A DNA stretch of 64,000 nucleotides from NCBI RefSeq assembly GCF_033153115.1, contig NW_026889796.1:13020001-13084000 (forward strand). The letters are read 5' to 3'. The notes below the pieces were generated by a model. The model had not been told where the DNA came from and searched no databases. It was given only the letters and a program-made list of their open reading frames with translations. The stretch comes from Saccostrea echinata. Taxonomy: Eukaryota. This document shows positions 47,435 through 50,194 of the stretch, one piece after another (positions within the stretch are counted from its first letter, which is position 1; each line of letters starts with the position of its first letter). Both the position numbers and the translations under genes were made by a program.

Positions 47435-50194
47435 TTAACAAATGGCTGTATTGGGGTGACACAGCTTATAAAACGATACAATAAAAACTAAATTGAACAT
47501 AAGGCCACTAGAAACAATGCCAATTGACCCGTAATAAATCCAAGGACAAAAGGAAATATTTTTGGCCAAAATCCATAAAATAAGTATAATAATATTCTCA
47601 GTGTAAAAGAACAAATAGTATAAAAGGGCATGGTATCGAGATTTACCGGGTCTGACATTCATAAAAGAAAAAATCTGCACAAATCCAACGAAAAAAATAA
47701 ATATAATATTTTCGTGGGTTTTCTTGTATGGCCTCATTTTCGTCGTAAATGACCACGTGATAACAACAATCCAATGAAAGACTACTGTTACTGCAAAAAT
47801 GATGCTATTCATTAGAATAATCATAACTAATGCCAATACTCTTGGTCCTATTTCAAACGCTCTCCAGAGGAAGTATCCTGTTGCAGCAAAGATCGTTTTT
47901 TGTCTCGTTTTGTCCATAGCGTTGCTCACACGGAGTGCTCGATAGTAAGCAGTCACAGACCACGTGACAGATACCCAAGAGGAGAGAACTGTTAACAGTC
48001 TAAGGATATCTGAAAATTAACCCAATAAATGGTAATGTGGTGCAGCAAAATATAACAAAATGCTCATATGTATGTGATTTAAAAATCGTCCAATGGCTGT
48101 ATATGTATTTAAATGCCATTGAGTAAATTGAATTTTTACAGCTTAATATTTTTTTTAATTAAAAACCAGCTTCTCTATATGTATAGTCCACAGAAATATA
48201 CAATTTTTTAGTACAACAGAATTTTGATTTGCTAATTGTAAATACCGAGGAAATACATAAATTTGATAAAATCCGGAAAAAAGGGAAACTTACGACTGTT
48301 AATCGATATGTCCTCACAATCTTTGAGATTCTCCTGTTCTTTCAGAATGAAGTAGATCTGTATTACCAGCTGGGGAGCGGATTCAATAAAGGCGTCAAAC
48401 ATTCTAAGTAGACTGGCATCTCTATCAGAGTAGATCATCTCTATGTAATGATAGTACTTATCAACGCCTTTCTGCTTGCTTTTGTAGCCGTGAAATACGT
48501 AGGTTATATTTCTGTAGAAAGTAATAATGTTAATTTTAAAGAATGTACCAAACTATATTATGATAAGTAATAACATTGTTTAATGTATGTGACCTACTTT
48601 TCCAAAAAAGAAAAGTAGTTTTTTTTTACTCAACTCATTTTGATGATGATATTTGAAATGTTTTGTGTGACTTGTACATTCTACAGGCATTGTTATTTCT
48701 TTTTAATTATTAAGTCTAATCATTATCTGTTCTTGTTACGCACTAATCAAAAGGACTATTCATTATGACTCAAAAATGTGATTATGAAGCGTATTTCCGG
48801 TTAGATCTAAGGACTATTGCACATTAAATTTGTTTTAAGTATGAAACACATTGACAGAATATTATCTATGAGTTGTTTGGAACTCTTACACGCTAAAGGT
48901 TATCAGGGATCACAAACCTGACCACTGTCGATAGAAATTCCTTAATTCTTATGTACAGAAAGGTGCATTAGTGTCTAAATGATTTATCCTTGAAGTTTAC
49001 TTATGAGCAAATATTACATTTAAATAACTTGAAATCCATTGTATCACTGTTTGTTGTACTTTTAAAAACCCGTGTATTCTTTAACATTTTTTCAGAGAAA
49101 TGAGACAGGAAAGTACGACAAGAGGTGGTGTAAATAGATGGGAATAGAAGAAGAGATAGAAGGGGAGGGATATGTAAGGTCTAAAGGGAGGTTAACGTTA
49201 CGAGGAAATAAAATGATTACCCCTCCCCATCCCTACTCATGTCAAATGACATAATCAAGTCTTACCTCTCTATAGTAGCAAATGGAAACATCAGAATCAA
49301 TAAACAGATATTTCGGCGGGATGGTTCCTGAGTATGCCAGATCGAACTTAAGATTCCAGTTACTAAAAATGCAGCAGCAACCAGGGATGACGTCAAAACG
49401 CACTCAAACATCATTCCATCGTCGTAATAGCTTTTGGCCAACAAAATGTCCGTAAAAACATCAATGCAAAAAAATATCAGAGAAATACTGATGCCAATAA
49501 AATCGATGCAAGAAAATGGATAAAACTGATTTGTTTTCTTTGATTCTTTAACAAGGTCACCGACTGAAGAATCGACCGCCTCTGTATGATCCACGCGCTG
49601 GTCGACCAGATTGTCGACTTCATCTGCAGAACTTGTACCTTCGGAAGCACCTGGATTCTCGGTCGTAGAATCTCTGGTTTGTAATTCGACATGTTGTCCA
49701 TTTTTCTTTTTTGATTCGTCAACACCGACACCGACTGAAGAGTCGCCCGCCTCAAAACGATCCAGATTGTCGACTTCATCTGCAGAACTCGTACATTCGA
49801 CCGCCTCTGTATGATCCACGCGCTGGCCGACCAGATTGTCGACTTCGTCTGCAGAACTTGTACCTTCGGAAGCACCTGGATTCTCGGTCGTAGAATCTCT
49901 GGTTTGTAATTCGACATGTTGTCCATTTTTCTTTTTTGATTCGTCAACACCGACACCGACTGAAGAGCCGCCCGCCTCTAAATGATCCAGACCGACCAGA
50001 TGGTCGACTTTGTCTGCAGAACTCGTACATAGGAAGCACCTGGATTCTCGGTCGTAGATTCTCTGGTTTGTAGATTCGACATCTTGTCCATTCCTGTCCG
50101 GGTTGAGGCACACTCCTTCAACATCCACCTTACGTTGATCGGCTAATCGTCTGGTCAATATCACTTTATATTTCCGGTTCTCATGGTTTTCCAT
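47435..50194 (-). CDS. XKR: XK-related protein copy C1 (divergent subtype, repetitive N-tail), apparently intact, 573 aa; exons 50194-49266, 48511-48294, 48009-47435
   Basis: 929+218+575=1722 nt open. Motifs IDVFTDILLA, IESAPQLVIQIY, FEIGPR, YTEN, FYKLCHP. Same intron phases as the A and B subtypes. Confidence 0.9.
49560..50090 (-). repeat. Coding tandem repeat in C1 exon 1 (225-bp higher-order unit = 69+156 bp)
   Basis: gcagaacttgtacc recurs at 49626 and 49851. DEVD codons at 49613-49624, 49769-49780 and 49838-49849; DKVD at 50003-50014. Confidence 0.9.

Follow-up and report, generated by a model that had tools for sequence, protein, structure and literature searches.

The locus described here bears on a question about Xkr proteins and the caspases that act on them, namely whether the cut falls at the N terminus, as in CED-8, or at the C terminus, as in mammalian Xkr proteins, and what is removed by it. 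It lies in a 64,000-nucleotide stretch of Saccostrea echinata DNA (contig NW_026889796.1; hereafter the window) in which seven XK-related genes and one remnant, all on the minus strand, form a tandem cluster. For one of these genes, C1, the original prediction had described a higher-order in-frame repeat that multiplies DEVD motifs and had proposed that the number of motifs could tune an activation threshold or serve as a caspase decoy or sink. We ask what C1 encodes, how its repeat arose and whether it is real, whether the motifs are caspase sites, and what their number could do.

C1 is a spliced gene of the Xkr family, with the Xkr fold and without a C-terminal tail. Its three coding exons (Table 1) yield a 573-aa product identical to RefSeq protein P0047, Saccostrea echinata "XK-related protein 6-like." The evidence for expression consists of intron-skipping contigs only, none of the listed runs being recorded as RNA; among the contig pieces listed, the joint 48009/48294 is present in three of the four runs compared, and the joint 48511/49266 is present in contigs from all four (10 runs are listed). 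Residues 236-568 match Pfam PF09815 (E 1.5e-65; 221.9 bits against a gathering cut-off of 24.8), and the Pfam search returned no other domain in C1. Foldseek with the AF2 model of C1 gave only five matches below 0.001 (9boj, 7p16, 7p14, 7dce and 8xej), to Xkr4, Xkr9 and Xkr8, with E values of 1.7e-11 to 1.5e-9 and target TM scores of 0.77-0.89. The accessible text of PMC8500837 describes a charged path in Xkr8 (D26, D30, R/K134, E137, E141 and R183) as essential for scrambling; the C1 counterparts, mapped via the alignment of the C2 model and by motif matching, are D245, D249, R346, D349, E353 and R406, so that five of the six are identical and E137 is replaced conservatively by D. Of the Xkr8 salt-bridge residues given in the same part of that source, R98, D129 and R214 are kept in C1 and D295 is replaced by E. 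Scrambling activity itself is predicted. Residues 1-190 of the tail have pLDDT values below 50 and are predicted to be disordered; the model also places a low-confidence helix at residues 14-23, overlapping a basic N-terminal motif, RK.KVILTRRLA, which is the best-conserved part of the tail and a candidate inhibitory element that cleavage would free.

No caspase site is present at the C terminus of C1: only five residues follow the conserved HP, with no DxxD, and a C-terminal caspase switch such as that of Xkr4/8/9 is therefore impossible for this protein. This distinguishes C1 from its best solved match, human Xkr4 (9boj; profile E 1.6e-137, fold E 1.7e-11), which according to the available portion of PMC12334663 is cut in a long C-terminal tail, and from mammalian Xkr8 and Xkr9 (7dce, 8xej, 7p14 and 7p16), which have the same fold as C1 and become active once a C-terminal helix is removed or the C-tail is phosphorylated. 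Since it lacks such a tail, C1 resembles CED-8 rather than Xkr8/9. CED-8 is a C. elegans Xkr protein with a caspase site in its cytosolic N-terminal tail (PMC12334663, in part), and C1 is like it in having N-terminal DxxD motifs and almost no C-tail; the likeness is one of description, our tree comprising oyster sequences and relatives only. CED-8 sheds 21 residues at one site (same portion of PMC12334663), whereas the 224-aa tail of C1 carries four DxVD motifs and an EAVD, and C1 differs further in that its sites come from nested duplications and are followed by a conserved Asn. The "XK-related protein 6-like" orthologues of Saccostrea, Ostrea, Magallana and Crassostrea have the basic motif, DxxD-N and second Asp motif as in C1; unlike C1, they hold mostly one DxxD-N and carry lineage-specific tail units of 62, 65, 63 and 29 aa.

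Table 1. Positions in the window of the features of C1 and of its sister gene C2.
Feature	Positions	Strand	Remark
C1 coding exon 1	49266..50194	-	ATG at 50194; 224-aa tail with caspase motifs, then first membrane helices
C1 exon 2	48294..48511	-	GT-AG introns
C1 exon 3 to stop	47435..48009	-	Ends 5 residues past conserved HP
Basic motif RK.KVILTRRLA, residues 7-18	50141..50176	-	Invariant in 6/6 aligned oyster orthologue tails
DKVD, residues 61-64, E-to-K variant, then His	50003..50014	-	Six-frame scan
DEVD, residues 116-119, then Asn	49838..49849	-	Six-frame scan
DEVD, residues 139-142, then Asn	49769..49780	-	Six-frame scan
Membrane-proximal DEVD, residues 191-194, then Asn	49613..49624	-	Orthologues have their single site here
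Site B, EAVD-S, residues 205-208, one copy	49571..49582	-	VD invariant in 6/6 aligned tails
Block 1, 234 bp, with DKVD-H and DEVD-N	49797..50030	-	Copied as block 2
Block 2, duplicate, 225 bp, with two DEVD-N	49572..49796	-	Copy alignment, TRF
Junction-specific segment, diagnostic of four-site allele	49754..49796	-	Inferred from X4 contig ends and residual depth
C2, XK-related, two DEVD; exons 58112-57416, 56597-56380, 55873-55299	55299..58112	-	

The six-frame scan recovers exactly the predicted set of three DEVD motifs on the minus strand, spaced by 69 and 156 bp, and one DKVD, all four within one ORF, and TRF confirms the 225-bp super-period (period 225, 1.9 copies, 97% match, 49572-49991). 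The two blocks align with 217 matches, 8 mismatches and one 9-bp gap. Block 1 begins just before the first site and finishes just after the second, and the 69-bp spacing is simply the distance across the duplication junction; the claim that two sub-units each carry a DEVD in frame therefore holds for the frame, but the sub-units are not independent and reflect one tandem event. What had been read as a two-level, higher-order repeat is a single recent duplication of a 234-bp block that already held two sites, and with two near-identical copies the proposed coding VNTR is better called an in-frame duplication. The older pair of sites is spaced by 171 bp in C2 and 165 bp in C1, and C2 has only two DEVD motifs, at precisely the predicted positions (57921-57932 and 57750-57761). 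The sites thus went from one DxxD-N to two by an older 165-171-bp duplication common to C2, and from two to four by the 234-bp duplication, alongside minor in-frame deletions and a single E-to-K change; every retained indel in C1 preserves the frame. At 50011, where the assembly encodes DKVD, three of the four runs carry the DEVD letter. A DEVD seldom arises by chance in this setting, having appeared in 50 and 93 of 20,000 shuffles of single-copy orthologue tails.

The reality of the duplication was checked on assembled contigs only, from four (X1, X2, X4 and X6) of the 10 listed runs; such contigs indicate presence and cannot prove absence, and the junction is read from sums of depth. Run X4 has an exact contig of 182 bases whose two ends, 49572 and 49753, are the predicted branch points at which the copies diverge, and leftover depths of 8.2 and 8.3 in two adjoining bins fit one piece spanning 49724-49826. 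Run X6 has a contig break at 49572 and a residual depth of 9.4. Conversely, in run X2 a contig identical to the 3' copy of C1 passes unbroken through 49572 and shares 30 bases with the upstream contig once shifted by 225, with a depth of 0 in the junction bin; in run X1 the junction bin is wholly accounted for by one contig that ends one base before the repeat boundary, which speaks less strongly for a missing junction. An assembly artefact would fit the lack of the junction piece itself among the contig pieces listed, the lack of junction cover in X1 and X2, and the N gap 1.2 kb upstream of the C1 ATG; set against this are the sequence differences between the copies, the uniqueness of the junction, the X4 contig that ends at both branch points with two bins agreeing on the residual depth, and the matching break in X6. 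With the junction indicated in X4 and X6 and not seen in X1 and X2, an artefact is very unlikely and polymorphism plausible, and we conclude from these sequence comparisons that the C1 duplication is probably real and probably polymorphic. Run X4 bears a different organism label, and one of the junction-holding runs could come from the source animal of the assembly. Mixed C1 and C2 letters along contigs were considered as a sign of gene conversion and rejected, since, beyond one word length, a contig may combine different alleles.

C1 and C2 are held in a tandem duplication of ~7.9 kb (47255-53846 versus 55118-61195), which includes arrays of a 146-158-bp satellite and, inside its first copy, a 143-N gap at 51395-51537. 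Two observations favour paralogues over two haplotypes: the introns of C1 and C2 agree at ~91% and differ by numerous indels, and the duplication of the upstream region is found on one side of the N gap. The C2 of this assembly lacks 16 bp at 57712/57713, a deletion between short direct repeats that shifts the frame to a stop at 57629-57627, leaving an ORF of 161 aa that closes 211 bases before the exon end, and the two DEVD motifs are here out of frame with the membrane domain. C2-type contigs in X1, X2 and X4, among the contig pieces listed, cross 57712/57713 without the deletion, and their mismatches (9, 13 and 9) each exceed by two the number of C2 differences that the sequence outside the deletion predicts (7, 11 and 7). 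Based on these three runs, other animals likely have an intact C2 with two sites, and the copy in the window is likely a null allele or an error. The RefSeq model of C2 regains the frame by removing a 41-nt GT-AG piece; no joint for this piece occurs among the contig pieces listed for the four runs, and we therefore take the in-frame RefSeq model to be a likely annotation rescue. The piece itself is made by C2-specific changes at 57735-57775, and its removal deletes the second DEVD and restores the frame. At 50221-50273, C2-type transcripts (X1, X2 and X4) swap 51 5' untranslated bases for 8 others. Contig cover extends to about 50430-50470 upstream of C1, which makes a further 5' arrangement, besides the AG at 50210, probable.

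Conservation among oysters is the first line of evidence that the motifs are caspase sites. D-[EDNK]-[VTL]-D-N occurs in 13 of 17 oyster tails, and most orthologues have one DxxD-N site. Across six aligned tails, both Asp residues and the Asn are invariant and P3/P2 vary (DEVD, DETD, DDVD and DELD); the invariant columns comprise the start Met, the basic motif, NG, H, D..DN..G, a later VD and YPFS. In C1, 32 residues separate the proximal DEVD from the reference point before TM1; most orthologues have 30-38 and one has 18. A second Asp motif, mostly followed by Ser, Thr or Ala, lies nearer the membrane in oyster tails.

The second line is enrichment across the family. From 150 Xkr representatives at 50% identity, 33 without an anchor and 27 with tails shorter than 25 aa were dropped, and removal of a further 20 tails (oyster-clade or alignable to each other) left 70 sequence-unrelated N-tails. 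In these, D-x-[VTI]-D is found 38 times where 8.9 would be expected, a count reached in none of 500 shuffles, whereas the reversed motif (7 against 7.2) and D-x-[VTI]-E (9 against 8.0) match expectation; the 70 tails still belong to related proteins, and the counts are not fully independent. The wider set of 89 N-tails gives 55 against 11.0 for D-x-[VTI]-D and 12 against 0.4 for DEVD, and C-tails are enriched too (12 against 4.7). Multiple sites are common as well, at least two being present in 11 of the 27 site-bearing unrelated tails (0.8 expected from shuffles) and in 16 of 36 in the wider set. The P1' residue is G, A or S at 18 of the 38 sites in unrelated tails (background 21%), which agrees with the preference of caspases for Gly, Ser and Ala reported in the accessible part of PMC7225963. 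On the other hand, Asn at P1' is found at 2-3% of vertebrate caspase sites (same part of PMC7225963) and at 0 of the 38 Xkr sites, and this rarity, together with the four of 17 oyster tails from which the DxxD-N site is missing, counts against the cleavage reading. Oyster executioner caspases have DEVDase activity in transfected human cells, with a caution from the authors about endogenous caspases, as described in the available text of PMC3923871. Because the motifs are kept in orthologues and enriched family-wide, the C1 DEVD motifs are, as originally proposed, very likely caspase sites that oyster DEVDase caspases would cut. Our literature search, outside which most subscription papers lie, found no paper that describes repeats or caspase sites in the Xkr genes of molluscs. 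N-terminal sites from other animals may already be visible in the supplementary family alignments of PMC12334663 and PMC8500837, and an XK-related gene is listed among loci under selection in oyster larvae in the part of PMC8477599 available.

Repeat expansion recurs in these tails. Independent tail repeats are present in proteins of other oysters (P0003, P0004, P0046 and P0072) and in one relative (P0179), with units of 62, 65, 29, 29 and 63 aa; they were found by a k-mer diagonal count, which missed an old duplication in O. edulis, and a BLAST self-comparison of tails returned no repeats. P0179 independently doubled two sites to four, and the Ostrea edulis orthologue has a second DEVD. In C. 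virginica, the amplified 62-aa unit carries EEVD-S and no DEVD, a 29-aa unit is site-free, and one DEVD remains about 350 residues from the membrane; weak Pfam matches on this repeat were treated as repeat noise, no stretch passing. The 65-aa tail duplicate of M. gigas has lost its DxxD. Repeats occur also in loops elsewhere in the protein (five of six proteins checked). P0013 and P0073, probably one lineage, have lost the basic motif and have no caspase site either, and P0046 has lost site A and has a full DAVD at site B.

The account that we hold to be probable, though by no means secure, is that C1 is a predicted apoptotic lipid scramblase likely activated by effector-caspase cleavage of its N-tail, and that the repeat results from a single recent duplication in frame, the added DEVD motifs being likely redundant and near-neutral. 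Oyster caspases would cut the tail at its DEVD sites, and the cut would free the conserved basic motif and lead to phosphatidylserine exposure, by analogy with CED-8. Each added site would sit between the basic motif and the original proximal site, so that the fully cut product would be unchanged; the sole gain could be a quicker first cut, at most proportional to the number of sites, and this would be of consequence only where freeing the N-terminal motif is what throws the switch. In the accessible text of PMC12334663, taking away the N-terminal piece of purified CED-8 makes no difference to its scrambling, and the tail may thus need cellular partners for its role. When a 75-80-aa block is placed in a two-site tail, it takes at least one site in all placements (68/68 to 73/73) and both in 14/73 to 19/68 (19-28%), which makes site capture unavoidable at such a size. 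This capture, the site-free or degenerate expansions in other oysters and the loop repeats favour near-neutrality; the common multi-site tails and the doubling in P0179 count against pure neutrality. Redundancy, in which any kinetic effect is modest at most, seems to us more probable than adaptive tuning.

Tuning would require the tail to act as an OR-gate in which any cut frees the N-terminal motif, more sites would give faster or lower-threshold exposure, and site number would be an adaptive polymorphism. We consider this doubtful. The excess of multi-site tails over shuffles agrees with it but partly mirrors the general enrichment of the motif; the doubling in P0179 and the second DEVD in Ostrea edulis are offset by the C. 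virginica units without DEVD and the degenerated M. gigas copy; and the frame-keeping of C1 indels is expected of any expressed gene. The apparent presence of the junction in two of four runs and not in the other two would fit such a polymorphism, as would the paired loss of basic motif and site in P0013 and P0073 and the full DAVD at site B of P0046, but the first two proteins probably represent a single lineage. Since added sites are distal, the end product is the same and capture is unavoidable at this block size, the earlier proposal that copy number could tune activation is unproven.

Less probable again is a broader proposal, in which N-terminal and often multi-site caspase control is widespread in non-Xkr8-type Xkr proteins and the oyster tail is an evolvable dosimeter that combines a basic brake, a segregating number of DEVD-N sites and an Asn N-degron bared per cut, such that two- and four-site alleles would differ in threshold or lifetime. 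A narrower timer, in which the DEVD-N cut bares an Asn Arg/N-degron, the active scramblase is short-lived unless EAVD-S is also cut, and upstream copies raise the chance that weak pulses mark it for removal, we judge improbable. The Asn is invariant after the site in the oyster clade yet rare at caspase sites generally (PMC7225963, in part), N-terminal Asn is destabilising via NTAN1 and arginylation in the available portions of PMC7225963 and PMC8346999, and the second Asp motif, mostly followed by Ser, Thr or Ala, lies nearer the membrane as this timer would need; however, conservation of the Asn may stem from an N-[LM]-V-G-x-R motif, which includes it and also occurs where DxxD is missing, and unrelated Xkr tails favour G/A/S at P1'. 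Known substrate-type caspase inhibitors such as p35 and CrmA require a folded trap. A decoy or sink, suggested by four near-optimal motifs on a single membrane-tethered tail, is scarcely credible and finds no support, as these are ordinary substrate motifs in a tail with pLDDT below 50 and no second domain that could trap a cleaved loop in the manner of p35 or a serpin, the products cut from this predicted disordered tail would leave, the membrane domain retains its scrambling residues, and one substrate with few sites would be small against the many in a cell.

The rest of the window contains five other XK-related genes, from a more distant clade (2022-43303, minus strand; exon 1 at ~5767, 12059, 20330, 34407 and 43303), of which the copy at 17638-20330 is frameshifted, and an exon-3 remnant of an XK-related gene at 21838-22193 (minus strand). 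The tails of the five carry site variants (DEVD-N twice, NEVD-N, CEVD-N and DVAD-N) and mostly a second DxVD. Inside the cluster, a single ORF of 323 aa (25782-26753, minus strand) has several hydrophobic stretches and appears GPCR-like by eye, with no Pfam match at E 0.1. Arrays of a 21-bp repeat, direct and inverted, occupy 37917-40756 inside an intron of one XK gene and contain long Cys/Met-rich ORFs on both strands; part of them resembles 22253-22526.

Taken together, the main result is an N-terminal, often multi-site caspase signature that appears across the Xkr family, together with a natural allelic series in a family already known and a duplication that appears real. For the contrast between CED-8 and the mammalian proteins, these sequence data suggest that the wider Xkr family commonly carries caspase motifs at the N terminus, and the conserved N-terminal motif is a candidate brake of the scramblase. 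The C1 repeat itself would be ordinary if neutral, and natural one-, two- and four-site versions of one gene provide a ready series for the effects of site number. In oyster biology, C1 is likely an effector of apoptotic cell clearance, set in an expanded gene cluster.
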